Positions 6,510-41,516 of a stretch of DNA of 64,000 nt are shown piece after piece. Position 1 is the first letter of the stretch; each line of letters opens with the position of its first letter. Source of the stretch: Myxococcota bacterium (GTDB lineage: Bacteria; Myxococcota_A; UBA9160; SMWR01). The stretch is taken from assembly GCA_035258825.1 (NCBI GenBank), contig DATFWW010000025.1, positions 17,805 to 81,804 of the forward strand, written 5' to 3'. The position numbers and the translations under genes are program-made. The notes under the pieces were generated by a model that saw only the letters and a program-made list of their open reading frames with translations, searched no databases and was not told the DNA's origin.

Positions 6510-7075
6510 CGGCCTATCTCGCGCTGCTCGCAGCGGTCGGGCTCGAGCGCCTGTTCGAGATCGGGCTCTCGCGGCGCAACGCGCGCCGCGCGCTCGCGCG
6601 CGGCGGCATCGAGTGCGACGCGGGGCACTTCCGGGTGATGAAGGTGCTGCACCTCTCCTTCCTCGTCGCCTGCGGAGCGGAAGTCGTGCTGCTCGGGCGC
6701 GCGTTCCATCCCGCACTCGCGGCCGCGATGCTCGCCGCGGCCGCGCTCGCGCAGGCGCTGCGCTACTGGTCGATCTGGACGCTCGGCGAGCGCTGGAACG
6801 TGCGCGTGATCGTGGTGCCGGGCGAGCCCGTGGTCACGCGCGGCCCGTATCGATTCGTTCGCCATCCCAACTACGCCGCGGTTGCGATCGAGGGCGTGGC
6901 GCTGCCGATGATCCACACGGCGTGGCTCACGGCGATCTGCTTCACGCTCGCCAACGCCGCGCTGCTCGCGGTGCGGATCGGCTGCGAGGAGCGCGCGCTC
7001 GGGCGCCTCACCGACTATCGCGACGCGCTCGGTGACCGCGCGCGCTTCCTGCCGACCCCCGGCGCATGGCGCTAG
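6503..7075 (+). CDS. Isoprenylcysteine carboxyl methyltransferase (ICMT) family membrane methyltransferase
   Basis: It is a multi-TM protein with 'VVTRGPYRFVRHPNYAAVAIEGVALP'. Its start overlaps the PKS stop (ATGGTGA), the same arrangement as the BpsB/SrsB partners of bacterial type III PKS. Confidence 0.85.
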   Translation: MVTAYLALLAAVGLERLFEIGLSRRNARRALARGGIECDAGHFRVMKVLHLSFLVACGAEVVLLGRAFHPALAAAMLAAAALAQALRYWSIWTLGERWNVRVIVVPGEPVVTRGPYRFVRHPNYAAVAIEGVALPMIHTAWLTAICFTLANAALLAVRIGCEERALGRLTDYRDALGDRARFLPTPGAWR

Positions 7076-8193
7076 CGGAATCCGCGGATCTCGCGATCGC
7101 GGGCGCGGGACCGGTCGGCCTCGCCACGGCGATCTTCGCGGCGGACGCAGGGCTGCGCGCCGTGGTGCTCGAGCGCCGCCGCGGAGAGACGATCGACAAG
7201 GCGTGCGGCGAGGGGATCATGCCGCGCGGAGTCGCGCTCTTGCGCGAGCTCGGCGTCGACCTGCCCGGGCGGCCGTTCGAGGGTGTGCGCTTCCTCTCGC
7301 GCGGTGCGGTCGCCGAGGGCCGGTTTCCGGGCGAGCCCGGGCGCGGCGTGCGGCGGATCGCCCTCTCGCGCGCGCTCCGCGAGCGCGCACGCGCGCTCGG
7401 CGTCGAAATCGTCTCCGGATGTGCGGTGCGGGACTTCGGCGAGTCCGGGGACGGGATCCGGGTCGAGACCGACGCGGGTGCGCTGTCCGCGTCGTGGCTG
7501 ATCGGCGCGGACGGTCTGCACAGCGCCATCCGCCGCAAGAGCGGGCTCGAGCGGCGCGCGCGCACGCCGCTGCGCTACGGGATCCGCCGACACTTCCGCG
7601 TGGAGCCCTGGTCGGCACTCGTCGAGGTGCACTGGGCCGACGAGGCGGAGGCGTACGTCACGCCCGTCGCGCGCGACGAGGTCGGGATCGCCTGTCTCTG
7701 GCGCGGCGACGGCCGGCGATTCGACGATCTGCTGGAGCTGTTCCCGGCGCTGCGGGCGCGGCTGCGCTGCTCCGAGCCGACCAGCGACGTGTCCGGCGCC
7801 GGGCCGTTCGCGCTGCGCGCGCGCCGCTGCTACCGCGGCCGCGTAGCGCTGGTCGGCGATGCGGCCGGGTGTCTCGATCCGCTCACGGGCGAGGGGATCA
7901 CGGTGGGACTCTTGTCCGCGCGGTCGCTCGTCGCGGCGATCGCGAGCGGAGCGCCGCTGCGCGACTACGCGCTGCGCCGGCGCCGGCTGCTGGCGGTGCC
8001 GCGCGCGCTGACGGGCCTCTTGCTCGTCGCCGCGCATCGCCCGCGCATGCGACATGCGTTCGTGTCACTCGTCGCGCGGCACCCCGGGTTGTTCGACGGC
8101 CTCGTCGCGCTGAACGCGGGCGAGCCGCTGCGCGCTCCGCGCGCGCTGCGCGGCCCGCTGCCCGCCTCGGGCTCCGACCGGAGCGCGCGTTGA
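7066..8193 (+). CDS. FAD-dependent monooxygenase/oxidoreductase (geranylgeranyl-reductase-like, SrsC-like)
   Basis: It has the dinucleotide fold 'DLAIAGAGPVGLATAIFAADAGLRAVVLER', 'DKACGEG' and 'VALVGDAAGCLDPLTGEGI'. It overlaps the methyltransferase by 10 nt. Confidence 0.85.
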   Translation: MALAESADLAIAGAGPVGLATAIFAADAGLRAVVLERRRGETIDKACGEGIMPRGVALLRELGVDLPGRPFEGVRFLSRGAVAEGRFPGEPGRGVRRIALSRALRERARALGVEIVSGCAVRDFGESGDGIRVETDAGALSASWLIGADGLHSAIRRKSGLERRARTPLRYGIRRHFRVEPWSALVEVHWADEAEAYVTPVARDEVGIACLWRGDGRRFDDLLELFPALRARLRCSEPTSDVSGAGPFALRARRCYRGRVALVGDAAGCLDPLTGEGITVGLLSARSLVAAIASGAPLRDYALRRRRLLAVPRALTGLLLVAAHRPRMRHAFVSLVARHPGLFDGLVALNAGEPLRAPRALRGPLPASGSDRSAR

Positions 8194-28514: not shown

Positions 28515-31500
28515 TTGGGCAGACGGGGCGGACGGGCGCTGGGGGGTGGCCCGATTGCAGCCGGTGCAGTCGTGACCGGGTCGACCGGCTTTGCGCCGCG
28601 GCGGGGCTCGCTCCGCGCCGCGTGGCTGGCGCTCGCGCTGATTCCGGTCGGCGCGCATAGCGCGCATGCCGTCGACGCACTCGACGGGCGCCTCGAGCTG
28701 CACGGCCACGTCGAGACGCAGGTGCGCGCGATCAGCGAGAAGTTCTCGCAGGAGCTCGATCTAGCGCAGTGGTACAACGTGCTCGACCTCGAGATCGACG
28801 CCCATGTGCTGCCGCAGGGCTGGGGCCCGATCAATGTGATGAGCGCGCACGTGCGCGCCGAGGGCCGCTACGACGCGATCTACTCCCACGGCTTCGGGAT
28901 CTTCCCGAGCATCAACACGTACGGAAACAATGCGCGCCGCCTGCCCCAGCGCCTGCGCGACGCCAAGGACCCCGACCTCGCGGGCGTGACGCCGGGTCCC
29001 GAGGGTCCCGCCGAGCGGATCCCGGACAAGCGGCCCGCGCCGTTCGCGCCGATCGGCGAGCGCCGCGGGATCCCCGACTACGACATCTTCTTCCGCCAGG
29101 CCGGCGGCGACGACGTGACCGGTACGGCGGACGACCCGGCTCGCTATGCGAACGCGAAGATCCTCGACTATCGCTATGCGCTTACCGACGTGCGCGGCCC
29201 CGCGGGCCCCGGTTCGACGCGCGTGCTGGGCCCGTGGCTGCCGAAGAACATCCTCGTCGCCGAAGCGCTCGGGCTCGACCGCGCGAACCCGCTGCGCGGG
29301 CGGATTCCCGCCACGGCGATCCCGTCGGGCTGGAACGGCGCGACGGGCGGCGCGTTCAACGATCCCTCCGCGGTGCGGTTCTTCGCGGGCGATCCCCAGC
29401 TCGCGGGCTTCTCCGCGGCGCAGCTCGCCGGCTTCTCGATCGACGCGCTCGACCCGAACGGCGCGGTCGCCACCGCGCTGTTCGCGCCCGACTCGGTGAT
29501 CAGCGAGTTGTCGCGCGGCAAGTGCGAGCGTGCGGGGATCGCGAACTGCACCGTCGGCACCACCTTCGCCGATCCCGACGGCGCCGGCACCTATACCGTG
29601 AGGGCGCTGAACCAGTTCCCGCCGCGGCCGCTCGCCGGTGCGGGCGATTTCTCGCTGGGCACCACCGTGGGCGGGCTCGCGGTGCCCGCCTTCGGCGGCG
29701 ATTTCTCCGGAATCGTGCCGTGCCTCGACCCCACCGACCCCGACCTCGGGGGGCGCCAGCGCGGGGAGGCCGGGCCGCTGCTGCTCGAGGAGAACAGCGG
29801 CTGCATCCCGGGCTCGTTCGACACCGTGAACCAGGGCGGTGTCACGCAGTACGGGTCGCGCGTCACCAGTCCGCAGAACATCCGCTTCGTCGGCGGCCGC
29901 GGCGAAGCGCCGTTCCGGCCCGCACCCGACCGCAGCAGCACCGCGGTCGGCAACGCCGCGCTGCTCGACGCGCAGGGCCTCTACCTGCCGAGCGTGGGCC
30001 TGCGCCACACGCTGCGATCGGGCGATCTCGATCCGCTGATGTTCAACGTCAGCGAGACGGACCGCGCGTGGAACCGCGGCGCGGCCCAGGAACGCACCAA
30101 GGAGCTGAAGGAGGCCTACCTCGACTTCGAGGCGATCGACCACCGGCTCTGGATGCGGGTCGGGCTCCAGAACATCGTCTGGGGCAAGACCGAGGTGTTC
30201 CGCGTCACCGACCAGTGGAACCCGCAGGACCTCGGACTCTCGTCGCTGCCGACGCTCGAGGAGTCGCGCATCGCGCTGTGGTCGGCGCGCGCGATCTATT
30301 CGCTCTACGACGTGGGCCCGCTGCAGGACGTGCGCCTCGAGGTCGCGGCCAACCTCGACAAGTTCGTGCCCGCCGATCTCGGTGCGTGCGGCGAGCCCTA
30401 CGCCGCCGACTCCGTGTGCTCGCTCACCTACGCGATCGCCACGCACTCCTACCTCGGCGTCGGAATCGCAGGCGTCGACCGGCCCGAGACCCCGTGGAAG
30501 GATCCCTCCGACCTCGAGATCGGCGGGCGGATCGAGTGGCGCTGGGACCGCTTCACCTTTGCGCTGACCGACTTCTGGGGGCACAGCGATCTCCCGTATG
30601 CGGACGCGATCTTCTTCTACGACCGAAGTGTCGACCCCGCGACCGGGCGCCCCGTGGTGGCGCGGCTGCCGGGCCAGGCGCTCGGCACGTGCGTCCACGG
30701 CGGGCAGATCGCGCCGGATCCCGTGAACAAGCCGACCCCGACCTCGCCCGGGATCGCCTACAGCACGTCGTTCGCGTCGCATCCCTACTCGGTCACGACC
30801 GCGCAGAAACCCTACGCGCTCTCGGGCGGCGGCACCGACTCGCTGCCGGACGGCTCTCCGCTCGACGGCACCACCGCGATCCGCGGCGGGATCGGCAGCG
30901 ATCCGGACTGCCTGCGCCCGGGCGGAGCGCCCGGGTTCGCGAACGCCTACACGCTCGATCCGCCCGCGCTCGTCGCGGCCACCAACGCGCTCCAGTTCCA
31001 GTCGTCGAACCAGCAGCTGTTCGCGTGGTCGTGTCTCGCCACGGTCGGGATCGCATCCGCGCTGGAGCCCAGCGCGTGCGCGTGGACGTTCTTCGCGAGC
31101 GGCGAGAACCTGCGCAGCGTGAACGTGCCGATCGGCGAGGCGTTCGCGACGATGTTCGCAGGCGATCCCGATGGCCCGACCACCGTCCGCAACATGCAGG
31201 TGGTGCACAACTTCCAGAAGGACGCGGCGCTCAACGGCCCGCTGATCGCGTTTCCGGTCGCGTCGCTGAACCGGCTCGCGAACAACCCGCAGGCTCCGTT
31301 CGACCGCAACGCCAACGGAGTCGTGGACAACGGCGCGGGCTGCGCCGACGACGATCCGTCGACGCCGTGCGATCTGGGCGGCTTCGACGGCTTCGACACG
31401 CGCACCGTGCGCGCGCGCTTCCCGGGTGCGCCCACGCTCGACAGCTCGCTCACCAACGAGCAGCGCGCGCTGCTCGGCTGCGGCCCGTTCTACGGCGTGC

Positions 31501-33260
31501 GCTGCGACAGCGCCGCGCGCGAAACCAATACGCTGCAGTTCCCGCAGTCGGGCCCGTTCGGCGGGCTCGACTTCATGAACATGGAGGCATCGGTGCTCGT
31601 GCAGTCGTGGCTCGGCGTCGAGGGCACGCTGCCCGGGCAAACGACCAGCGACAATCTGCCACAGCCCGGCACGATCGGGCCGCTCGGCGCCGCGCAGGAG
31701 ATCAGCCCGGGCACCGCGCTGCGCGCGAACGTGCCGTTCCTCGGCGGACCGGCCTGCACGCGCTTCGTTGCGAGCCAGGGCCTCGTGAAGCTGCCGGGGT
31801 GCCGCGGGATCGCGGCGATGTCGGTGGTGTACACCGATCCGAACGGGGTTCCCGGCGACGCGGACGACATCCCGACGCGCGTGCAGGTGCAGTTCGAGGC
31901 CGGCTATCTGCCCTCGATCGACGGCTGCATCGTCGGCGACGTGATCCGCCAGCGCGGCGGCGCGCCCGCGGTGCCCGTGGTGGCGATGGGCGCATCCGCG
32001 GAGCTCACGCGCGAGCTCGCGCTGTGCAGCGGGGCCACCACGCACCGCGCCGTGCCCGAAATGCTGATCGCGGGCTTCGACGCCAACCAGAACCCGATCC
32101 AGGTCGCCAACCCCGCCTGCGCGGCGCGCACCGCGCGCGGCGCGTCGATCGTCGAGAACGGCGCGACGCGGCGCGTGTTCATCTGCCGGGCAGAGGAGGT
32201 GACGCTCGCGGACCTGCCGCTGATCCACCCGACCGCGGGCTGCATCGACTCGCCCACCAACCCGCGCGGCGTGCCGAGCTGCTTCGAATGGGCCAACCGC
32301 GATCTCGTCGCGGAGCTGTTCGCGGGCACCGCGCAGCTGTTCCAGAACGAGCTCGCCGCGTTCTCCGACAACTTCCTCGCCTTCCTGGCGATCTCCTCGT
32401 GCGATCTGCGCTCGAAGGACCTCGACGGCAAGGACCACAATGCCGAGGGCGCACTCGCCGCCGACCCCGAGTGCTTCCTGCCCACCGCGCCGTACCAGCC
32501 CGGGCGCTGCTCGCTGTCCACGCCGCAGCTGTGCAAGAACGTGAAGAACTTCCTCGCCGCGGTCGGCGTCACGCGCAACACCGTGCGCGCGGCGGGCAAC
32601 GAGCGCTTCGGGCGCCGCACGTTCATCTGGCACAGCGGCGGCGAGGTGGTGCTGCGCTACGACCAGCACAACGTGCTCGGCTTCGCGACCGATTTCGCGG
32701 AGGACCATACCCAGACGAGCTGGGGGTTCGAGTTCACCTGGGTGGAGGGCGTCCCCTATTCGGATGCGGACGCGCTGAACGGGATCAGCAACACCGACGA
32801 GCTCAACTTCGCGGTGTCGGTCGACCGGCCGACCTTCATCCGCTTCGTCAACGCCGATCGCCCGGTGCTGTTCAACACGCAGTGGTTCGTGACCTACCTG
32901 TCGGACTACCGCCACGGCTTCACCGCGAACGGCCCGGTCAATGCGTTCTTCACGTTCGCGATGTCGACGGGCTACTACCAGGACCGCCTGATCCCACAGC
33001 TGCTCACGGTGTACGAGTTCGCGTCGCGATCGGGCGGCGTGCTGCCGTCGCTCGAGTACCGGTTTACCGACTCACTCTCGATCACGGGCGGCATGCTCTA
33101 CTTCTTCGGGCGCACCGAGCTGTCCGAGATGGCGGTGCGGGAGGTGTCGCCCGTGATCAACCGCGCGGGTCCCCACGCCTACCGCCAGCCGGTCGAGAAC
33201 GGCTTCTCCGGCATCCGAAAACGCGACGAGGTGTTCGTCAAGTTGCGCTGGACGTTCTAG
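28515..33260 (+). CDS. Giant (1581 aa) DUF1302-like outer-membrane beta-barrel protein with large Cys-rich insertions
   Basis: It has the signal peptide 'LRAAWLALALIPVGAHSAHA|VD' and the DUF1302-like core 'LKEAYLDFEAIDHRLWMRVGLQNIVWGKTEVFRVTDQWNPQDL'. The termini show alternating beta-strand patterns, and the C-terminus is the OMP signature 'VFVKLRWTF'. The start is ambiguous (TTG at 28515 or GVG-type GTG at 28572). Confidence 0.65.
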   Translation: MGRRGGRALGGGPIAAGAVVTGSTGFAPRRGSLRAAWLALALIPVGAHSAHAVDALDGRLELHGHVETQVRAISEKFSQELDLAQWYNVLDLEIDAHVLPQGWGPINVMSAHVRAEGRYDAIYSHGFGIFPSINTYGNNARRLPQRLRDAKDPDLAGVTPGPEGPAERIPDKRPAPFAPIGERRGIPDYDIFFRQAGGDDVTGTADDPARYANAKILDYRYALTDVRGPAGPGSTRVLGPWLPKNILVAEALGLDRANPLRGRIPATAIPSGWNGATGGAFNDPSAVRFFAGDPQLAGFSAAQLAGFSIDALDPNGAVATALFAPDSVISELSRGKCERAGIANCTVGTTFADPDGAGTYTVRALNQFPPRPLAGAGDFSLGTTVGGLAVPAFGGDFSGIVPCLDPTDPDLGGRQRGEAGPLLLEENSGCIPGSFDTVNQGGVTQYGSRVTSPQNIRFVGGRGEAPFRPAPDRSSTAVGNAALLDAQGLYLPSVGLRHTLRSGDLDPLMFNVSETDRAWNRGAAQERTKELKEAYLDFEAIDHRLWMRVGLQNIVWGKTEVFRVTDQWNPQDLGLSSLPTLEESRIALWSARAIYSLYDVGPLQDVRLEVAANLDKFVPADLGACGEPYAADSVCSLTYAIATHSYLGVGIAGVDRPETPWKDPSDLEIGGRIEWRWDRFTFALTDFWGHSDLPYADAIFFYDRSVDPATGRPVVARLPGQALGTCVHGGQIAPDPVNKPTPTSPGIAYSTSFASHPYSVTTAQKPYALSGGGTDSLPDGSPLDGTTAIRGGIGSDPDCLRPGGAPGFANAYTLDPPALVAATNALQFQSSNQQLFAWSCLATVGIASALEPSACAWTFFASGENLRSVNVPIGEAFATMFAGDPDGPTTVRNMQVVHNFQKDAALNGPLIAFPVASLNRLANNPQAPFDRNANGVVDNGAGCADDDPSTPCDLGGFDGFDTRTVRARFPGAPTLDSSLTNEQRALLGCGPFYGVRCDSAARETNTLQFPQSGPFGGLDFMNMEASVLVQSWLGVEGTLPGQTTSDNLPQPGTIGPLGAAQEISPGTALRANVPFLGGPACTRFVASQGLVKLPGCRGIAAMSVVYTDPNGVPGDADDIPTRVQVQFEAGYLPSIDGCIVGDVIRQRGGAPAVPVVAMGASAELTRELALCSGATTHRAVPEMLIAGFDANQNPIQVANPACAARTARGASIVENGATRRVFICRAEEVTLADLPLIHPTAGCIDSPTNPRGVPSCFEWANRDLVAELFAGTAQLFQNELAAFSDNFLAFLAISSCDLRSKDLDGKDHNAEGALAADPECFLPTAPYQPGRCSLSTPQLCKNVKNFLAAVGVTRNTVRAAGNERFGRRTFIWHSGGEVVLRYDQHNVLGFATDFAEDHTQTSWGFEFTWVEGVPYSDADALNGISNTDELNFAVSVDRPTFIRFVNADRPVLFNTQWFVTYLSDYRHGFTANGPVNAFFTFAMSTGYYQDRLIPQLLTVYEFASRSGGVLPSLEYRFTDSLSITGGMLYFFGRTELSEMAVREVSPVINRAGPHAYRQPVENGFSGIRKRDEVFVKLRWTF

Positions 33261-33763
33261 CGGGCCGTCGCATGGGCCCGCGCAATCGCCTGCTCGATCG
33301 CCGCGCGGATCAGCACGTCGTTGTCCTTCGAGATGAATCGGTGCACATAGCGCTCGAGGAAGAAGCGCATCACCGGGTTGAAGACGTGGTAGGTCTCCCG
33401 GAAGTGGATGCGCGTGCGTCCGCCGCCGAGGTCTTCGAGCCGGTGCCAGCCCTCCGCGCGCGACCAGAGCGGCTTGCCGACCGCCTCGTAGTGCGACGAG
33501 ACGTTGGGCACCACCTGCGTCACCCACTCCCACGACTGGCCGACGCCGCCCGAGAACAGGAAGCGCGGCACGCGGAAATAGCAGTGCCGGATCAGCCCGT
33601 CGCCGTGCTCGTCGCCCTCGTGGAGCACCTCGATCCGCACGTCGCGGTGCTCGATGATGCGCGGCTTGCCCGGCTCGGCGCGCTGGCGGACCGGCGGGTG
33701 CAGCGCGCGCCACACGAGCTCGGGCTTCGCGTCGATCTCGAACGAGAAGCTGTGGTCCTGCAT
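33257..33763 (-). CDS. SRPBCC (START/Bet v1-like) family protein
   Basis: This 168-aa protein has 'FSFEIDAKPELVWRALH...' and the beta-grip pattern typical of polyketide-cyclase/lipid-binding SRPBCC proteins. Only the last 168 codons of the long 33257..34429 ORF look coding. Confidence 0.7.
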   Translation of the reverse strand: MQDHSFSFEIDAKPELVWRALHPPVRQRAEPGKPRIIEHRDVRIEVLHEGDEHGDGLIRHCYFRVPRFLFSGGVGQSWEWVTQVVPNVSSHYEAVGKPLWSRAEGWHRLEDLGGGRTRIHFRETYHVFNPVMRFFLERYVHRFISKDNDVLIRAAIEQAIARAHATAR

Positions 33764-33813
33764 CGGGCGGGAGAGTAGTCCGGAAGTGCCGCGCGATCCG
33801 GTATCGTCGCGCC

Positions 33814-35196
33814 GTGGGATGCTGGGGGAGAAGCGCAGGTTGGGCGCTGGCCGCGTTCGTGCTGGCCGGCTGCTGGGGGCATCCGCGCGACCTGCGCGAT
33901 GCGGGCCGGCTCGGCCGCGTCGAGCTGGTCCGGCCCAAGGCGGAGGGGCCCCCGGACGACCTCGTCTACCTGTTCTCGGGAGTGGAGGGCGACTCCGCCG
34001 CGCTCCGGCGCACGGCGCGCAAGCTCGCCGAAGACAACTCCGCGGTGGTGGTGGTCGATCTCCCGTCGTACCTGCACGGGCTCGCCGCGAGCGACGACGG
34101 CTGCCACTACGTGATCGCGGAGCTCGAGGATCTCGGGCACCAGCTCGAGCGCGAGCTCGGCTTCCCCGTGTATCGCTCGCCCGTGCTCGCCGGCGTCGGC
34201 GCCGGGGGCACGCTTGCCTATGCGGCGCTCGCGCAGTCGCCTGCGGCGACGGTGGGCGGCGCAGTCGCGGTGGACCCCACGCCTTCCCTCCACACGCGCG
34301 TGGAGCTCTGCGAGGGACCCCCCGCGGCGGGAGCTCCCGCACACCCGGCGCGCGGGGGCGGGTTCGCCTACGGACCCGCGCCCGACCTGCCGGCCCGGCT
34401 GCGCATCGCGACCAGCGGTCCGCCGTCACCCGAGCTGCGCGCGATCGCGGCCGCGTCGCCGCGCGTCGAGCTCGTCGCCGCGGCGCCCGGCGACGTCGCC
34501 GCGAGGATCGCCGCCGCGCTCGATCCGCTGCTGGGCGGCGAGGGCGCGGAGGGCGACGTGGCGGGAACGCTGGAGGATCTGCCGCTGATCGACATCCCGG
34601 CCGTCAAGCCGCAGCGGCTAGTCGCGGTGATCTGGTCCGGCGACGGCGGCTGGCGCGACCTCGACAAGACGATCGGAGAGATCCTCGCCCAGCGCGGCGT
34701 GCCGGTCGTGGGGGTCGACTCGCTGCGTTATTTCTGGAGCAAGCGCGAGGCCGACCAGGTGGCGTCCGACCTCGCCCGGATCCTCGCGGCCGCGCGCGAG
34801 GCGTGGCACACACCCGACGCGCTCGTGATCGGCTACTCGTTCGGTGCGGACGTGTTGCCGTTCGCGATCAACCGGCTGCCCGCGTCCGAGCGCAGCCACG
34901 TAGTGCTGCTCTCGCTGCTCGGACTCGAGGCGAACGCGCCGTTCGAGATCGAGGTGACCGGGTGGCTCGGTGCCACGGACGAGGAGGCCCCGCTCGTGCT
35001 GCCCGAGCTCCTGCGCTTCGACCTCTCGCGACTGCAGTGCGTGTACGGCGAGGATGAGGACGATTCGCTCTGCCGCGCGCCCGAGCTCGCCGGCGCCGAG
35101 ATAGTGAAGTTCCCGGGCGGCCACCACTTCGACGAGGACTACGAGAAGGTCGCCGACGCGATCCTCCAGAGCGCGCAGCGCCGCGAGCGTCGTTGA
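33814..35196 (+). CDS. acvB: AcvB/VirJ-family protein (putative lysyl-phosphatidylglycerol hydrolase)
   Basis: It has the lipoprotein-like N-terminus 'AAFVLAGCWG'. The VirJ alpha/beta-hydrolase region reads 'LVAVIWSGDGGWRDLDKTIGEILAQRGVPVVGVDSLRYFWS...LVIGYSFGADVLPF', and an N-terminal degenerate copy is also present. Confidence 0.8.
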   Translation: MGCWGRSAGWALAAFVLAGCWGHPRDLRDAGRLGRVELVRPKAEGPPDDLVYLFSGVEGDSAALRRTARKLAEDNSAVVVVDLPSYLHGLAASDDGCHYVIAELEDLGHQLERELGFPVYRSPVLAGVGAGGTLAYAALAQSPAATVGGAVAVDPTPSLHTRVELCEGPPAAGAPAHPARGGGFAYGPAPDLPARLRIATSGPPSPELRAIAAASPRVELVAAAPGDVAARIAAALDPLLGGEGAEGDVAGTLEDLPLIDIPAVKPQRLVAVIWSGDGGWRDLDKTIGEILAQRGVPVVGVDSLRYFWSKREADQVASDLARILAAAREAWHTPDALVIGYSFGADVLPFAINRLPASERSHVVLLSLLGLEANAPFEIEVTGWLGATDEEAPLVLPELLRFDLSRLQCVYGEDEDDSLCRAPELAGAEIVKFPGGHHFDEDYEKVADAILQSAQRRERR

Positions 35197-35212
35197 GCGC
35201 GCCGCGGGCCTG

Positions 35213-37765
35213 CTATTTGGACACGATCCCCGTCACGCCGCCCGAGATCAGCGCGGCCACGTCGGTGAGCACGCCGGCCAGCGCGAAGCCGCCCGGCGCG
35301 GCGAGGTAGCGCGGCTCCCAGACCGGGTCGAACTTGTCCTTGAACGAGCGCAGTCCCTGGAAGTTGTAGAACTGCTCGCCGTGGGCGAACACGATCGCGC
35401 CGACGCGGCTCCACAGCGGGGCGAGCCGGTGCCGCTCGAGGCCAGCCAGCGGCGCCATGCCGAGATCGCACCAGCGATAGCCCTGCGTGCGGCCCCACTG
35501 GAGGATCTCGATGAACAGGAAGTCCATCACGCCGCTCGGCGCGTCGGTGGAATAGCGCATCAGGTCGACCGACAACTCGTTTCGCGGATCGGGCGCCCAG
35601 AGGTTCGCGAACGCGACGATGTGGTCCTCGTGGCGCACGATCGCGATCGGCGTGCGCGCGAGGTAGTCGGCCGCGAACGAGCCGAGCGAGAATCGCTTCT
35701 CGCGCGTGTTCTTGTCGCCGAGCCACTCGTCGGAGATCTCGCGTAAGCGCGGGATCAGCGGGGGCACCGCGGACGGCGGCACCACGTCGAGCGTGAGGCC
35801 CACGCGCTGGAGGCGGTTGTAGGTCGCGCGCAGGCCCTTGCGGCGCCCGCCCGAGAGCGAGAAATCGGTCAGCTGCACGCGAGCCGACTCGCCGAGCTTG
35901 CGCAGATCGAGGCCGAGATCGAGGTAGACGGGCAGATCGTCCGGGCGCACCTGGTAGAACGCGACCAGCCCGCCGTGCTGGTCGGCGAGCTCGAAGAACC
36001 GCCAGGCGAGCTCGCGCCGGACGTCGGGGGGGCCGACCGGGTCGCCCATCGAGATCCAGCTGCGGCGCTGGACGCCGTACATCACGAAGCCGGTGCCCGA
36101 CTCGTGCAGGAGCACGCGCTTGTCGCCGAGCAACGCGAGATGCGCGCAGGCGGCTGTCGAGGCGTCGACGATCTTCGCGATCGGCTCGAGCGCCACGGGT
36201 TCGGGCGGCGTCGCGGGCGGGCGCGCGGGCCGCAGCAGGCGCGCGAGTGCGAACGCGGAGAGCAGGAGGCTCCCGCCCGCGAGCGCGCGCAGCGAGCGCG
36301 GAGCGTCGCCCGTGAACTCGAACTCCCACCAGAGCTGATTGGAATACTCGACGTGCCGGTTCGCGAGCAGCACGACGTAGAGCGTGCCGAGCAGGATCCC
36401 CGCGATGCCCATCGTCCAGGCTGGCGTGAACGACTGGGCGAACAGCGAGCTGCGCCGGTAGAAGAAGCGGCGGCACGGCGCCAGCGCGAGGCCCATCACG
36501 AGCAGCACCAGCGCCTCCTCCCAGTCGAGGCCCTTGAGCAGCGAGAAGCCGGCGCCGCCGAACAGCAGCGCGAGTGTCAGCGCGTATCCGGCGTCCACGC
36601 GCTGCTGCACCGCGCGCGCGAGCAGCAGCAACCCGACGCCGATCACGCTGCCGAGGAAGTGCGAGACCTCGACGACCGGCTCGGGGAGCATGAGATGCAG
36701 CAGGGCGATGCGCGCCGGCATGGCCGGCGTCGAGCCCGACACGAGCAGCAGCGCGCCGGCCGCGAGCGTCGCGACGCTGAAGAAGCGCGGCACGATCTCC
36801 GGCAGCCACTGCCCGATCAGCGATCCCGCGCGCGCGAACACGCGCCTGCGCTGGAGCATCTCGAAGCCCGCGAACAGCGCGATCGCGAGTACGAACGGGA
36901 TCAGGTAGTAGACGCAGCGATAGGCGAGCGCGGTGCCCAGCACGACATCGGGCGTGTGCCACGGCGCCAGCAGCATCACCATCGCGGTCTCGAACACGCC
37001 GAGACCGGCCGGCACGTGGCTGACCAGTCCCGCCACCTGCGCGATCAGGAAGATCCCCATGAAGCGCGCAAAGCCGAGCTCGGTCCCGTGCGGAAGCAGC
37101 ACGTAGAACGCGGCGGCGGCGAGCGTCCAGTCCACCGCGGAGAGCACCGTCTGCGCCGCGCTGATCCGCGGGCCCGGGATCTCGATCGAGAGCTCTCCGA
37201 CGTCGAGGTCGCGCCGGCGGCCGACGAAGAAGATCCAGTAGGCGGCGGTCAGCAGCGCGAAGACGGCGCCGAGCGGGCGCGTAGTGGCGATTCCGTGCCA
37301 GGGGCCGGGCAGCGCGACGGGATCGGCGAGCAGCAGCAGCGCGCCGAGTGCGAAGAAGCCCAGCCACAGCGTCACGAAATTGAACGCGATCGCTCGGCCG
37401 AGCTCGGCGGGCGGAACGCCCCAGCTCGAGTACATGCGATAGCGCACCGCGCTGCCGCCGAGGAACGACAGCCCGACGTTGTGGCTGAAGACGTAGGCGA
37501 TGAACGAAGCCAACGCGATCCGCCGCAGCGCGAGCTGCCGCCCGATCCAGCGGAACGCCAGCAGGTCGTATCCGGTCAGCGCCACGTAGCCCGCGAACGT
37601 GAACCCCAGCGCGGCGGCCAGCTGGCGGGCGGGGATCGCGAGCAGGCGCCCGATCACGTCGGCCATGTGATAGGCCGCGAGCTCGCGGTGGAGGATCGCG
37701 ATCGTCGCGGCGAACAGCGCCAGGCCCACGATCGGAGCGATCGCGGCGAGCAAACGCTCCTTCAT
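35213..37765 (-). CDS. mprF: Bifunctional lysyl-phosphatidylglycerol flippase/synthase MprF (LpiA)
   Basis: This 850-aa protein has an N-terminal ~14-TM flippase domain. The C-terminal aminoacyl-PG synthase domain ends '...FYNFQGLRSFKDKFDPVWEPRYLAAPGG'. Confidence 0.9.
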   Translation of the reverse strand: MKERLLAAIAPIVGLALFAATIAILHRELAAYHMADVIGRLLAIPARQLAAALGFTFAGYVALTGYDLLAFRWIGRQLALRRIALASFIAYVFSHNVGLSFLGGSAVRYRMYSSWGVPPAELGRAIAFNFVTLWLGFFALGALLLLADPVALPGPWHGIATTRPLGAVFALLTAAYWIFFVGRRRDLDVGELSIEIPGPRISAAQTVLSAVDWTLAAAAFYVLLPHGTELGFARFMGIFLIAQVAGLVSHVPAGLGVFETAMVMLLAPWHTPDVVLGTALAYRCVYYLIPFVLAIALFAGFEMLQRRRVFARAGSLIGQWLPEIVPRFFSVATLAAGALLLVSGSTPAMPARIALLHLMLPEPVVEVSHFLGSVIGVGLLLLARAVQQRVDAGYALTLALLFGGAGFSLLKGLDWEEALVLLVMGLALAPCRRFFYRRSSLFAQSFTPAWTMGIAGILLGTLYVVLLANRHVEYSNQLWWEFEFTGDAPRSLRALAGGSLLLSAFALARLLRPARPPATPPEPVALEPIAKIVDASTAACAHLALLGDKRVLLHESGTGFVMYGVQRRSWISMGDPVGPPDVRRELAWRFFELADQHGGLVAFYQVRPDDLPVYLDLGLDLRKLGESARVQLTDFSLSGGRRKGLRATYNRLQRVGLTLDVVPPSAVPPLIPRLREISDEWLGDKNTREKRFSLGSFAADYLARTPIAIVRHEDHIVAFANLWAPDPRNELSVDLMRYSTDAPSGVMDFLFIEILQWGRTQGYRWCDLGMAPLAGLERHRLAPLWSRVGAIVFAHGEQFYNFQGLRSFKDKFDPVWEPRYLAAPGGFALAGVLTDVAALISGGVTGIVSK

Positions 37766-37830
37766 GCGAATCTCTCCGGTGCGGGCGGCTGGACGCCGCC
37801 GGACAACAAGTTTAGACGGGAGGAACCACC

Positions 37831-38418
37831 GTGCATGTTCTGTTCTGGATCGCGACGGGGATGGCGATCGGCGTCACAATCGGCGCCGCGTGGGGCAGCT
37901 GGGCCGCGGGGAGCCGCCGCGCGGCCGGGATCCCGGTGGTCGCTGGGCCGGGTGCCCCGGACCTCGACGCGCTGATCTCCGGGCTGGGCGAGCTCGAGCG
38001 CGGCGTGTTCGCCCGGCTGCTGCACCGCCAGCGCACCGTGCGCGACATCACGGCCGAGTTCGAGCGGCAGCTCACGTTCGGCGAGCGCCTCGCCGACCGG
38101 ATCGCGGCGTTCGGCGGGAGCTGGGGATTCATCACCACCTTCCTCGCGGCGCTGCTCGCCTGGATCGCCTACAACGCCGAACGCCCGGCGAGCTTCGATC
38201 CCTATCCGTTCATTCTGCTGAACCTCGTGCTCTCGTGCCTCGCGGCGCTTCAGGCGCCCGTGATCATGATGAGCCAGAACCGCATGGCGGCGAAGGACCG
38301 GCTCGACGCGCGCCACGACTACGAGGTCAATCTCAAGGCCGAGATCGAGATCATGCAGCTCCACTCCAAGATCGACGAGATCTCGCTGCGGATCGGCGCC
38401 GACACCTCCCTCACCTAG
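37831..38418 (+). CDS. DUF1003 membrane protein
   Basis: It contains 'FGGSWGFITTFLAALLAWIAYN...FDPYPFILLNLVLSCLAALQAPVIMMSQNRMAAKDRLDARHDYEVNLKAEIEI'. The GTG start has GGGAGG upstream. Confidence 0.8.
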   Translation: MHVLFWIATGMAIGVTIGAAWGSWAAGSRRAAGIPVVAGPGAPDLDALISGLGELERGVFARLLHRQRTVRDITAEFERQLTFGERLADRIAAFGGSWGFITTFLAALLAWIAYNAERPASFDPYPFILLNLVLSCLAALQAPVIMMSQNRMAAKDRLDARHDYEVNLKAEIEIMQLHSKIDEISLRIGADTSLT

Positions 38419-39872
38419 CGCGGTCGCTCGAGGAACGCCGAGGAGGTCCGGTAGCGCAGCTCGTCCTCCGCGATCGGGATCGACTGCGCGTCGAAGGATT
38501 CCCGGCGCCACGCGCTGCCGTCGCGCTCGTCGAAGAACACCTCCGCTGCCGGGTCGAATACCGAGGCCGGCTCGCCGCCGGGCCATGCGGGGTAGCCCGG
38601 CCGGTCGCCGCTCCAGCGGTGCAACAGGATGCCGACCCCGGCGCGGTGATCGCTGCGCCGCTCCGCGATCACGTAGAGCGGCTGCTGTGTCTGCGTGTCG
38701 ACATAGAGCGTGAGCCAATCGTAGTCGCGACCGGTCTCGCGCAGCGCACCCTGGATCGCGACGGCCTGCCGCACGTCCCAGCGGTCGTCCGCGAGCGAGA
38801 GGCCGCTCGGTCCGAAGTCGCGATCGGGGTCGGACGGGTAGCCGCCGCGCGCTGCATTCAGCGGCGCGATCACCTCCCGGACGCCCAGCACGCGCCAGAC
38901 GTAGGCGTTCGGGCGGATCTCCAACCCGGTGAAGCCGCGCGCGGCGTTCTCGGTGAGCGAGGCCGCCGCCCCCGCCGCGGCCACGCCGCCGGCGCCGATC
39001 ACGCCGCCCGGCGCGCGATGGCGCGGCAGATAGAGCCCGTCCACCCACGCGGTCGAGGCGCGCCGCACCTTGCGCAGCGCCGGTGTGAACACGAACACGT
39101 CATCGGGCAGCCCGAACCGCTGTGCCGCGGCGGCCGCGCGCGTCTGCTGCCACGCCACGCCGCGCGCGTCGGCGGGTTCGGCGAAGCGGCCGCCCGCCAC
39201 CCACGCGGCCGATCCGGCCGCGGGCGCGCCCGGGAGCGCGAGGTCGGCGCGGTGCGCGATCAGGTGCTGGAACCAGCTGCCCTGCGAGATCTCCTCGTCG
39301 CCCGCGCCCGCCCATTCGGTGATGCGGAAACGGGCGCTCGGGCCCGCGCCGCGATTTCGGAGCTCGGCATTCCAGGCCCAGCGCGCGCCCGCGTCGCTCC
39401 CCGCCCCGTCGATCGTCTCCGGGGGGAACGGCAGCCCCGCGGTGTAGCCGGTGAGGTTGCCGTCGGCGTCGAGTCGCGCGCGCCCCGCGAAGCGCTCGGT
39501 GGCGAGCCGATAGGCGCTCGGCACCGGATAGCGGCGGTGGCACGCGCCGATCGCCATGCGCATCTCCTCGTGGAAGAACGCGTCGCGATGGCGCCAGACC
39601 TCGGGGGGTAGCAACGCGGAGAGCCGCAGCAGGTCGGCGCGCGCGAGCACCATGCCCTCGGCAACGCGCTCCGCGGTCGAGCCCGGCGACGGCTCGCCGA
39701 ACGCCGGACACGCGTGCTCGGGGGGTAGCTCGCCGGCGAAACCGGAGGCGGTCACCGACCCGATGACGAGCGCGGCGAGCGAAGGCAAGACTCGTGAGCA
39801 GCGCGATCGCAGCACGCGCGAGCCCCCCTCCCGCGCCGATTCTATACCCTCCCGGCGAGGAGGCCCGCGCAT
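38415..39872 (-). CDS. DUF1329 family protein (LolA-like fold, usual partner of DUF1302)
   Basis: It contains 'GYTAGLPFP', 'WAWNAELRNRG', 'FTPALRKVRRAS', 'YVWRVLGVREVIAPLN' and 'RWDVRQAVAIQGAL...DYDWLTLYVDTQTQQPLYV'. These follow the order of conserved DUF1329 blocks. The start is uncertain (ATG at 39872 or GTG at 39815). Confidence 0.75.
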   Translation of the reverse strand: MRGPPRREGIESAREGGSRVLRSRCSRVLPSLAALVIGSVTASGFAGELPPEHACPAFGEPSPGSTAERVAEGMVLARADLLRLSALLPPEVWRHRDAFFHEEMRMAIGACHRRYPVPSAYRLATERFAGRARLDADGNLTGYTAGLPFPPETIDGAGSDAGARWAWNAELRNRGAGPSARFRITEWAGAGDEEISQGSWFQHLIAHRADLALPGAPAAGSAAWVAGGRFAEPADARGVAWQQTRAAAAAQRFGLPDDVFVFTPALRKVRRASTAWVDGLYLPRHRAPGGVIGAGGVAAAGAAASLTENAARGFTGLEIRPNAYVWRVLGVREVIAPLNAARGGYPSDPDRDFGPSGLSLADDRWDVRQAVAIQGALRETGRDYDWLTLYVDTQTQQPLYVIAERRSDHRAGVGILLHRWSGDRPGYPAWPGGEPASVFDPAAEVFFDERDGSAWRRESFDAQSIPIAEDELRYRTSSAFLERPR

Positions 39873-39873
39873 C

Positions 39874-40821
39874 GTGCGACGCTCCGTAGGGATCCCGCTC
39901 GCGCTCGGGATCGGCCTGGCGATCCTCGTGCTCCTGCTCGCGGTGGGCTGGCAGATCCTCGTGCTCGACGATCCCCGACCGATCACGCAGGGCCTGTCGA
40001 CGCGCGACTGGCTGATGCTGATCCTCGGCACCGTGTTCTTCGCGCTCGTGCTCGCGGGACTCGTCGCGCTCTCGACGTGGCTCGTCCGCGAGATGCGGCT
40101 GAACCAGCGCCAGCGCGCATTCCTCGACGCGGTCACCCACGAGATGCGCACACCGCTCGCGTCGCTGCGGCTGTACCTCGACACGCTCGGCCGCCACGAT
40201 CCCGAGCCCGAGCAGCGCCGGGCGTTCCTGGGCCGGATGCAGCGCGACGTCGATCGCCTCGATCATACCGTCGAGCAGGTGCTGCACGCGGCGCGCGCAG
40301 AAGAGCACCGCCGCGGAGCTCCGACCGAGCAGGTGATGCTCTTTCCGCTGCTCGACGAGTGCATCGAGGAGCTGCGCACGCGCCACGAGCTGCCCGCCTC
40401 GGCGGTGCAGCTCGAGGCGACTCCGCTCGCCGCGCTCGGAGCCCCGGCCGTGCGCGGCAACCGCGCCGAGCTCGCGGTGATCTTCCGCAACCTGCTCGAG
40501 AACGCCGCCAAGTATTCGGACGCCCCGGTCGAGATCCGCGTGCGCGTGTCACCCAAGGGCGACGACCGCGTCGACGTCGCGATCTCCGACCGCGGGATCG
40601 GCATTCCCGCCGGCGAGCTGCGCAAGATCTTCCAGCGCTTCTACCGCGCGGGACGCGACGTGCAGCGGACCGCGGTGGGGCTCGGGCTCGGGCTGTTCAT
40701 CGTGCGCAACCTCGTGCGCCGCCAGGGCGGCCGCGTCGTGGCGCGCAGCCAGGGCTCGGGCGCGGGCAGCCGGTTCGTGGTCACGCTGCGCGCGGCGTCG
40801 GTGGCACCGGAGGTCGCGTGA
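39874..40821 (+). CDS. Sensor histidine kinase with minimal extracytoplasmic loop (intramembrane-sensing type)
   Basis: Two TM helices are separated by only ~15 aa ('DDPRPITQGLSTRD'). They are followed by the H-box 'VTHEMRTPL', N-box 'NLLENAAKYS', 'DRGIGI' and 'GLGLGLFIV'. The start is uncertain. Confidence 0.85.
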   Translation: MRRSVGIPLALGIGLAILVLLLAVGWQILVLDDPRPITQGLSTRDWLMLILGTVFFALVLAGLVALSTWLVREMRLNQRQRAFLDAVTHEMRTPLASLRLYLDTLGRHDPEPEQRRAFLGRMQRDVDRLDHTVEQVLHAARAEEHRRGAPTEQVMLFPLLDECIEELRTRHELPASAVQLEATPLAALGAPAVRGNRAELAVIFRNLLENAAKYSDAPVEIRVRVSPKGDDRVDVAISDRGIGIPAGELRKIFQRFYRAGRDVQRTAVGLGLGLFIVRNLVRRQGGRVVARSQGSGAGSRFVVTLRAASVAPEVA

Positions 40822-41516
40822 CGCGGATCCTCGTCGTCGAGGACGAAGAGCACCTCGCCGAGGGCCTGCGCTTCAACCTCGAAGCCGAGGGCTACGAGGT
40901 GGCGATTGCTCCCGACGGGCTGCGCGCGGTGGATCTGCTCTCCGCGCGCGAGCGCCCGGTCGATCTCGTGATCCTCGACCTGATGCTGCCCGGACTCTCG
41001 GGCTTCGAAGTGCTGCGGCGCGCGCGCGCGTCGGGCGACTTCGTGCCGGTGCTGATCCTCACCGCCAAGGATGATTTCGAGGACCGCGTGCGCGGCCTCG
41101 AGGAAGGCGCAGACGACTATCTCGTGAAGCCGTTCCGGCTCGACGAGCTGCTCGCGCGCACGCGCGGGCTGTTGCGGCGGCGCCGCTGGGACGGTGTGGC
41201 CGACGGGGCACCGCCCGCGCCGGTCGTGATCGGCGCATCGATGCTGCACTTCGACCGCTTCGAACTCGCGACACCCGCGGGTGTGGTGAATCTCACGACG
41301 CGCGAGATGGGGCTGTTGCGCGCGCTGGTGGATCGCGGCGGCGAGGCGGTTACGCGCGGCGAGCTGCTAGAGAGCGTCTGGGGTCTGCGCCCGGACACGC
41401 GCACGCGCGTGGTGGACAGCTTCGTCGTGCGGCTGCGCCGCTACCTCGAGCCGGATCCGGCGCGCCCGCGCCACCTGCTGTCGGTGCGCGGGCGCGGGTA
41501 TCGATTGGTGCGCTGA
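40818..41516 (+). CDS. OmpR/PhoB-family response regulator
   Basis: The receiver has 'ILVVEDEE', 'DLVILDLMLPG' and 'DDYLVKPF'. The winged-helix output has 'LTTREMGLLRALV...VRGRGYRL'. The GTGA overlaps the kinase stop. Confidence 0.9.
   Translation: MTRILVVEDEEHLAEGLRFNLEAEGYEVAIAPDGLRAVDLLSARERPVDLVILDLMLPGLSGFEVLRRARASGDFVPVLILTAKDDFEDRVRGLEEGADDYLVKPFRLDELLARTRGLLRRRRWDGVADGAPPAPVVIGASMLHFDRFELATPAGVVNLTTREMGLLRALVDRGGEAVTRGELLESVWGLRPDTRTRVVDSFVVRLRRYLEPDPARPRHLLSVRGRGYRLVR

Follow-up and report, generated by a model that had tools for sequence, protein, structure and literature searches.

To our knowledge, the DUF1302 and DUF1329 proteins make up a widespread envelope system with clear mutant phenotypes, for which we know of no mechanism or solved structure. 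Classical pairs include AmeA/AmeB in Castellaniella defragrans, PP_0765/PP_0766 in Pseudomonas putida and Sama_1588/1589 in Shewanella amazonensis. In P. putida, it has been shown that DUF1302 and DUF1329 are required for growth on fatty esters, and an esterase role has been hypothesised for the classical proteins from their fitness on Tween 20 and butyl stearate (10.1101/2020.07.04.188060). In Castellaniella, AmeA/AmeB belong to a monoterpene-associated efflux cluster in which growth on monoterpenes requires AmeB (PMC6394551), while in several bacteria DUF1302 and DUF1329 genes are cofit with BNR and resistance-nodulation-division (RND) genes, and export of an envelope component has been proposed (10.1101/072470). 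The classical DUF1302 protein has been described as an 18-strand barrel predicted to form a complex with DUF1329 at an interface predicted TM-score (ipTM) of 0.84, its nearest solved folds being AlgE and OprD/Occ with a TM-score of ~0.55 (PMC13499233); the same strand count has been reported elsewhere (bioRxiv 10.64898/2026.03.07.710327). Another member of this family, of giant size, is encoded in the stretch analysed here, a window of 64,000 nucleotides (nt) from a Myxococcota bacterium (contig DATFWW010000025.1, positions 17,805 to 81,804), where a gene for a giant DUF1302 outer-membrane protein (28572..33260, forward strand; 1562 amino acids (aa) from a GTG at 28572) precedes a convergent DUF1329 gene.

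This protein is a DUF1302 member and, on computational evidence, a markedly new variant. As the sequence-only reading of this DNA had noticed, it is more than twice the length of its classical counterparts (1562 aa, compared with 605-631 aa for the members considered here), and the excess lies in two barrel loops, L2 and L5, which are predicted to form a disulfide-stapled module on the cell surface. By analogy with the classical pairs, we put at about 0.5 the probability that barrel, L2/L5 module and DUF1329 partner act as a surface head on a conduit for hydrophobic cargo. Residues are numbered throughout by the 1581-aa open reading frame (ORF).

Membership of the family is supported by several comparisons. 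Pfam returned one family only, PF06980 (DUF1302), at 30.5 bits (cutoff 23.2; E 2.6e-7) over residues 525-599, the very block that had earlier been recognised by eye as the DUF1302 core; an NCBIfam scan of the protein gave no match. Since the PF06980 match spans only profile positions 140-219 (80 of 541), the remainder of the barrel was examined separately. With residues 514-722 as query, a tblastn search of plasmids turned up a classical DUF1302 of Pseudomonas veronii (30.6% identity, E 3e-10), whose gene is followed directly by a DUF1329 gene on the plasmid. When the giant-family profile was aligned with this 631-aa protein by hhalign (probability 98.2%, E 4e-14), the C-terminal ~250 residues of the window protein (~1332-1581) paired with classical residues 351-631, and the 674-aa L5 took the place of about 20 classical residues. 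The P. veronii gene (plasmid NZ_CP142043.1; loci L006/L007) spans the record origin, is unannotated and carries a TGA in frame where 'IVWGK' has its conserved Trp, a codon that was set to W for comparisons; it may be a pseudogene or the product of a sequencing error.

The barrel itself was modelled with AlphaFold2 (AF2) on a complete 1162-aa homolog, P0097, from an alignment of 48 sequences. The model, with a predicted local distance difference test score (pLDDT) of 73 and a predicted TM-score (pTM) of 0.81, has 3 + 6 + 9 = 18 long strands, and all 17 of its Foldseek matches in the PDB with E <= 0.001 are outer-membrane barrels (OmpC, FadL and similar), the top ones being general porins, FadL and TonB-dependent receptors, not AlgE. 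Transferred to the window protein through an alignment, strands b1-b3 (residues 59-74, 82-99 and 106-120) fall at 28689..28874, b4-b9 with loops L3 and L4 and the DUF1302 core (residues 531-701, placed by Pfam, tblastn and the model) at 30105..30617, and b10-b18 (residues 1376-1581, placed by hhalign and the P0097 strands) at 32640..33257, all on the forward strand. Both termini, read from the sequence, are those of an exported barrel, as had been claimed before: a Sec signal peptide (residues 20-52, MTGSTGFAPRRGSLRAAWLALALIPVGAHSAHA; 28572..28670, forward strand) ends in ..AHSAHA and would be cut before VD, its n-, h- and c-region pattern being retained in homologs, and the C-terminal ..KLRWTF is likewise conserved in them. 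The Pfam match, the hhalign pairing of the C-terminal half, the 18-strand homolog model and the conserved DUF1329 partner described below show or closely imply, as far as modelling can, that the window protein is a Sec-exported, 18-stranded DUF1302 outer-membrane barrel of the type inserted by the β-barrel assembly machinery (BAM), and they bear out the assignment made from the sequence alone.

The two loops are larger than had been supposed. The sequence-only reading had correctly seen two insertion blocks, placed at residues 130-500 and 760-1340 and amounting to some 900 aa, whereas the mapped strands give bounds of 121-530 for L2 (410 aa) and 702-1375 for L5 (674 aa, 20 cysteines; 30618..32639, forward strand, defined by the L5 model and cysteine conservation), or ~1,080 aa of extra sequence. 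Within L2, alignment and comparison with the family hidden Markov model (HMM) separate a proximal part (residues 121-261; 28875..29297, forward strand), which is conserved in all barrel forms including those of 1100-1200 aa and is missing from most of the barrel-free relatives described below, from a distal part (residues 262-530; 29298..30104, forward strand; HMM positions ~243-420) that carries cysteines 337/345 and 403/430.

Barrels assembled by BAM keep their termini in the periplasm. L2 and L5 come after odd-numbered strands (b3 and b9), the parity is the same whether it is counted from the N- or the C-terminus, and by strand order the short connections lie on the opposite side from L2, L3, L4, L5 and L9. 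Given the rule on termini, this placement would make L2 and L5 extracellular, and we infer from the modelled strands that they are surface-exposed and not periplasmic; of the two locations offered in the sequence-only reading, strand order thus points to the surface.

The cysteines are those of a disulfide-rich ectodomain. There are 26 of them (residues 337, 345, 403, 430, 625, 635, 726, 799, 840, 855, 943, 952, 989, 997, 1081, 1096, 1138, 1171, 1202, 1224, 1243, 1256, 1296, 1320, 1332 and 1340), four in L2, two in L4 (625/635) and 20 in L5, with none in residues 1-336 or 1341-1581. The hand count made earlier was therefore exact; the close spacings are mostly C-x7-C and C-x8-C, as then listed, together with C-x9-C, C-x12-C and C-x14-C. 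Across 111 homologs, neighbouring cysteines are retained or lost jointly (337/345, 403/430, 625/635, 840/855, 1296/1320 and 1332/1340; phi 0.93-1.0), the pair 726/799 is invariant, and the number of cysteines after the signal peptide is even in 100 of the 111. This co-occurrence is strong indirect evidence that up to 13 disulfides between sequence-neighbouring cysteines would staple the ectodomain, and it agrees with the disulfide-stabilised module that had been proposed.

Modelled alone (residues 700-1378, alignment of 50 sequences), L5 gave an AF2 model of mixed helical and beta-rich structure with a pLDDT of 80.5 and a pTM of 0.88; on prediction, this insertion folds confidently by itself. 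Neither the PDB nor BFVD contained anything similar to the L5 model in Foldseek searches (the best PDB entry had an E of 0.067 and a probability of 0.08), and a profile search with the family alignment against PDB sequences gave only a chance match (E 0.41). Pfam and NCBIfam gave no match to the insertions, and self-BLAST of the window protein revealed no internal repeats. The ectodomain contains invariant polar residues in the motifs NEQRALLGCGPF.G.RCD, D..N.EAS, HP.AGC and DGC, and among close orthologs its conservation (83-88%) is like that of the barrel (83-93%). Because L5 is as conserved as the barrel in these orthologs, the idea of a hypervariable recognition head was rejected.

The module also exists without a barrel. 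In a profile search of 1.84 billion representative proteins with L5, 458 matches were obtained at E <= 0.001, and 22 of the proteins retrieved (~760-1330 aa) align only to HMM positions ~243-420, the distal L2, and ~622-1169, which correspond to L5, with every barrel segment missing. Their layout is a signal peptide, a 'QRTF.WH.G' motif, distal L2, a short linker, L5 and Asp-rich repeats; in the giant protein the same motif stands after L5, directly before b10. Since distal L2 and L5 are directly joined in these proteins, the two loops behave as one discontinuous, autonomous module, and the module idea of the sequence-only reading is upheld twice over, by an L5 that folds alone and by these barrel-free proteins. 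What is new here is this joined occurrence of distal L2 and L5, without a barrel, in proteins of related, uncultured Myxococcota that read as secreted.

Three of the barrel-free proteins are complete genes inside contigs. Weak NCBIfam matches to MtsC were found in three (19-38 bits, against a cutoff of 350), and some C-termini consist of a Cys-Gly motif followed by a hydrophobic helix and then a cluster of Arg, resembling a cell-surface sorting signal, although NCBIfam models gave nothing on the C-terminal tails at E <= 1. These free forms are consistent with an extracytoplasmic location for the module, probably at the surface. The group, which includes P0113, P0117 (L082, 7340-10612), P0129 (L083, 8001-11183) and P0262 (L087, 1566-5417), has no Pfam family, and its only source-given name, 'PEP-CTERM sorting domain-containing protein' (P0257), comes from a motif upstream of the module; in P0114 and P0116 a PEP-CTERM motif occupies residues 166-194, N-terminal to the module, which looks like the fusion of a small upstream gene into the call. 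At L082, a 207-aa gene (6720-7343) ends 4 nt inside the barrel-free gene, and a DSBA-domain gene is found ~1.5 kilobases (kb) upstream.

The barrel-free forms do not form a group of their own. When the L5 sequences of 146 proteins were compared by neighbour joining and by identity, the free forms were scattered, each beside a different barrel clade: free P0129 pairs with barrel-borne P0051 (67% L5 identity), P0116 with P0112 (72%), P0262 with P0105 (68%), P0136 with P0066 (64%) and P0260 with P0070 (69%), whereas free forms are at most 45% identical in L5 to free forms beyond their own clade. Yet free forms from separate parts of the tree have common L2-L5 junction linkers, which are missing in their barrel neighbours. 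One metagenome (ERZ23486753) is the source of both P0129 and P0051. The simplest reading of this pattern would be that free and barrel-borne copies recombine or evolve in concert, although assembly chimeras or repeated independent excisions could also lie behind it. The barrel-free forms may derive from barrel forms, and the 'grafting' envisaged in the sequence-only reading may have run in either direction. Two reciprocal hybrids were seen: P0105 (L088, 1806-6626) has the barrel N-terminus, core and module followed by a free-type C-terminal tail, and P0111 has a free-type N-terminus and module followed by barrel strands b10-18; these may be either real recombinants or metagenome assembly chimeras. 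A search with the L5 of the window protein returned only fragments and distant free forms, none of the latter more than 40% identical.

Taken to its furthest, this evidence would describe a fold not reported before that lives either in two barrel loops or free, its copies being kept alike by recombination within each lineage, a proposal that we regard as quite unlikely to hold in full. If it were true, the free and barrel forms would share a target or bind each other, as a matched surface pair around a DUF1302/LolA-like conduit.

The conserved neighbour of the giant gene is a DUF1329 gene. In the window it encodes a LolA-like protein of 485 aa with an N-terminal signal-like segment (38415..39872, reverse strand; PF07044, 78.5 bits; an NCBIfam scan gave no match), and it converges with the barrel gene. 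Of the 49 GTDB loci whose downstream sequence extends for 2.5 kb or more, 35 carry a homolog of DUF1329 there on the other strand, the gap being at most 250 nt in 28 and 2-6.5 kb in seven. Relatives of the giant protein at 66%, 49% and 47% identity share the order speA, hisS, a gene for an FG-GAP protein, topA, giant DUF1302, convergent DUF1329, histidine kinase, OmpR-type regulator and PAC2, as does the P0051 locus, and the part from topA to the response regulator, an arrangement kept at most family loci, recurs down to ~37% identity. The locus is vertically inherited and belongs to the core genome, not to a mobile island.

The window keeps the order of its relatives, with four additional genes between giant DUF1302 and DUF1329. 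These are an SRPBCC-like ORF (the first of the four, reverse strand, within 33257-38418), a putative lipoprotein of the VirJ/AcvB type with an LAGC motif (33814-35196, forward), an MprF lysyl-phosphatidylglycerol synthase (35213-37765, reverse) and a DUF1003 protein (37816-38418, forward). In most relatives the two genes are direct neighbours; a gap of 2.7-4.7 kb to DUF1329 also occurs in L023 and in L008, the closest relative, both of them among the closer ones. Beyond the DUF1329 gene and divergent from it, Pfam identified a histidine kinase (HisKA + HATPase_c; 39898..40821, start approximate, forward strand) and an OmpR-type response regulator (Response_reg + Trans_reg_C; 40810..41516, start approximate, forward strand), which may, by synteny only, be linked to the DUF1302 system.

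On the reading that we favour, at the even odds given above, the barrel and its LolA-like DUF1329 partner would form a conduit carrying a hydrophobic or amphipathic molecule between surface and periplasm, as has been proposed for the classical pairs, and the disulfide-rich ectodomain would be a surface head that binds or presents either the cargo or its source. Several points weigh against this. The published roles of classical DUF1302/DUF1329 diverge between export of a cell-wall component, esterase and efflux. The four intervening genes and the convergent orientation mean that the barrel and DUF1329 genes of the window are not one operon, and no BNR (COG4447) or COG1033 RND gene was found among the Pfam-scanned window ORFs or within ~10 kb in relatives; in some Pseudomonas these genes are unlinked. 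The PF06980 match is narrow, the barrel was modelled on a shorter homolog that is 43% identical to the window protein, and the loop placement, the disulfide geometry and the packing of L2 against L5 are read from strand order and sequence.

The best surviving alternative, possible but unlikely, is a device for surface recognition or adhesion, in which the barrel would be mainly an anchor, the ectodomain would bind a cell, a surface or a barrel-free paralog, and transport would be secondary or absent. Such a device might consist of a matched receptor and ligand or of a homotypic pair, loosely like the Cys-rich Myxococcus receptor TraA. It is favoured by the very large size, disulfide content and predicted outward orientation of the ectodomain, and by the presence of the module in secreted proteins with Asp-rich repeats, weak matches to the cell-cohesion protein MtsC and, in some, tails like a sorting signal. 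That free forms stand beside separate barrel clades and nevertheless have linkers of their own is what would be expected if copies were kept matched, and P0129 and P0051 do share one metagenome. However, close orthologs conserve the ectodomain about as well as the barrel, whereas recognition heads are usually hypervariable, and the strict conservation of the DUF1329 partner speaks for a barrel that does more than anchor. Moreover, no free paralog is more than 40% identical to the L5 of the window protein, the MtsC matches fall far under the cutoff, and the tails are not recognised by NCBIfam models.

It is very unlikely that the ectodomain is instead a surface enzyme (an esterase, lipase or other hydrolase) that processes an insoluble or hydrophobic substrate outside the cell before the product is taken up by the barrel and DUF1329. 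The esterase role hypothesised for the classical pair and the invariant polar residues in the conserved motifs of the module would suit such an enzyme, but the insertions match nothing in Pfam, NCBIfam or the sequences of the PDB, Foldseek matched no solved enzyme, and no recognisable catalytic motif was identified. In addition, classical members lack the module, so that an enzymatic role proposed for them cannot reside there.

Highly improbable, too, is an arrangement in which the L2 and L5 insertions face the periplasm or plug the lumen of the barrel. Disulfides would form equally well in the periplasm, the orientation depends on the rule for termini and on predicted strand counts, and the proximal L2, being specific to barrel forms, could enter the lumen. 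Against this, parity from both termini places L2 and L5 with the other long loops and opposite the short connections, ~1,080 residues are too many for the lumen of an 18-strand barrel, and some barrel-free homologs end in the Cys-Gly, hydrophobic helix and Arg-cluster tail that resembles a surface sorting signal, albeit without an HMM match.

The giant protein belongs to a large, unstudied family. An initial search for homologs gave 111 clusters, mostly of 1400-1800 aa but including a set of 1100-1200 aa; they are named only 'hypothetical' or 'DUF1302 family protein', and those labelled come from Myxococcota metagenome-assembled genomes (MAGs). When GTDB was scanned at one genome per species, 336 giant-family loci were found; the best 80 of the 336 are nearly all in MAGs, mostly labelled Myxococcota or Deltaproteobacteria, and several GTDB genomes carry two or three giant-family paralogs. 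The sequence-only reading had allowed that its claim would lose force if full-length homologs of annotated function were common: they are common, in the hundreds, and none has an annotated function. None of the papers at hand that mention DUF1302 describes giant forms. Some loci depart from the usual arrangement. P0099 (L004) is a shorter paralog of 1201 aa with a reduced ectodomain and no DUF1329 gene nearby, and a DUF1329 homolog is likewise missing from L029, L047, L052, L057, L062 and other GTDB loci, many of them with shorter matches. P0266, P0267/P0190, P0271 and P0276 (426-508 aa, on contigs of 6-120 kb) are 84-89% identical to parts of the window L5; they probably represent orthologous giant genes whose calls were split or frameshifted.

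The reading frame itself is well supported. The mechanical ORF (28515..33260, forward strand, 1581 aa) opens with TTG, but the NCBI protein P0001 ('DUF1302 family protein [Myxococcota bacterium]'), 100% identical to the window protein, has 1562 aa, which makes the GTG at 28572, 19 codons downstream, the likely start; an 'MTG..' N-terminus is common to close homologs. G+C content at third codon positions (GC3) is 0.85-0.96 in each 300-nt block of the frame, and the 111 homolog clusters align along the whole length of the protein. DNA of ~70% G+C produces long chance ORFs, and two that overlap the giant gene, 28761..32915 (reverse strand, 1384 aa) and 28769..33778 (forward strand, 1669 aa), are by-products of this kind and not genes. 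Although hybrid architectures occur among database relatives (P0105 and P0111) and the 426-508-aa L5 fragments on long contigs suggest frameshifted calls, the uniform GC3, the end-to-end homologs (~100 collinear and full-length, from many samples), the independent identical record, the 336 loci in GTDB species genomes and the conserved genomic context effectively refute, and led us to reject, the chimera or two-gene fusion that the sequence-only reading had named as a danger to its claim.

To the DUF1302/DUF1329 system the giant variant adds a large, well-defined domain, predicted to lie at the surface, together with a core-genome locus that is conserved among uncultured Myxococcota, and thereby a new handle on what that system binds. 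A folded domain of ~1,000 residues built from two separate barrel loops is unusual among bacterial outer-membrane proteins, and no solved structure is detectably related to this module. Its barrel-free copies are expected to be soluble and to express well enough for the domain to be open to experiment in spite of the uncultured host.

When the giant protein is set beside known systems, each resembles it in part. AlgE and OprD/Occ are likewise monomeric 18-strand barrels, but there is no sequence relationship and they have no large folded ectodomain. TraA and MtsC (TSP3-repeat, MYXO-CTERM) resemble the barrel-free relatives, which are likewise secreted and Cys-rich, have Asp-rich TSP3-like repeats and in some cases end in a helix and an Arg cluster; these relatives differ in having no PA14 domain and match weakly and only in the repeat region, and the window protein has none of the features in question and ends in a barrel strand. 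Autotransporters, intimin/invasin and the Helicobacter Hop/BabA adhesins combine a barrel with a large surface domain, often with disulfides, as the giant protein does. However, in those adhesins a terminal passenger is carried on a 12-strand or small barrel without a LolA-like partner, as opposed to two internal loops on 18 strands, and a Pfam scan of the window protein found no families of the autotransporter or intimin type. LptD/LptE serves as a working analogy, being a large barrel with functional disulfides and a small partner that brings an amphipathic lipid to the surface, although LptD has 26 strands, an N-terminal periplasmic jellyroll, an LptE lipoprotein plug and no extracellular domain, and is not homologous.

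The nearest comparison remains that with the classical DUF1302 proteins themselves. The giant differs from them in L2 and L5, which carry ~1,000 extra residues and 22 more cysteines, in a DUF1329 gene that is convergent and not co-directional, in an adjacent regulator that is a two-component system and not of the LuxR type, and in its host, an uncultured member of the Myxococcota and not of the Pseudomonadota; BNR/RND companions were not seen among the ORFs scanned. It is like them in the PF06980 core, the homologous C-terminal half of the barrel, the 18 strands, the signal peptide, the C-terminal aromatic residue and the nearby DUF1329 gene, and it has in common with the P. veronii protein even the cysteine pair of L4 (GQCGQPNSILDAGC in one, GACGEPYAADSVC in the other).

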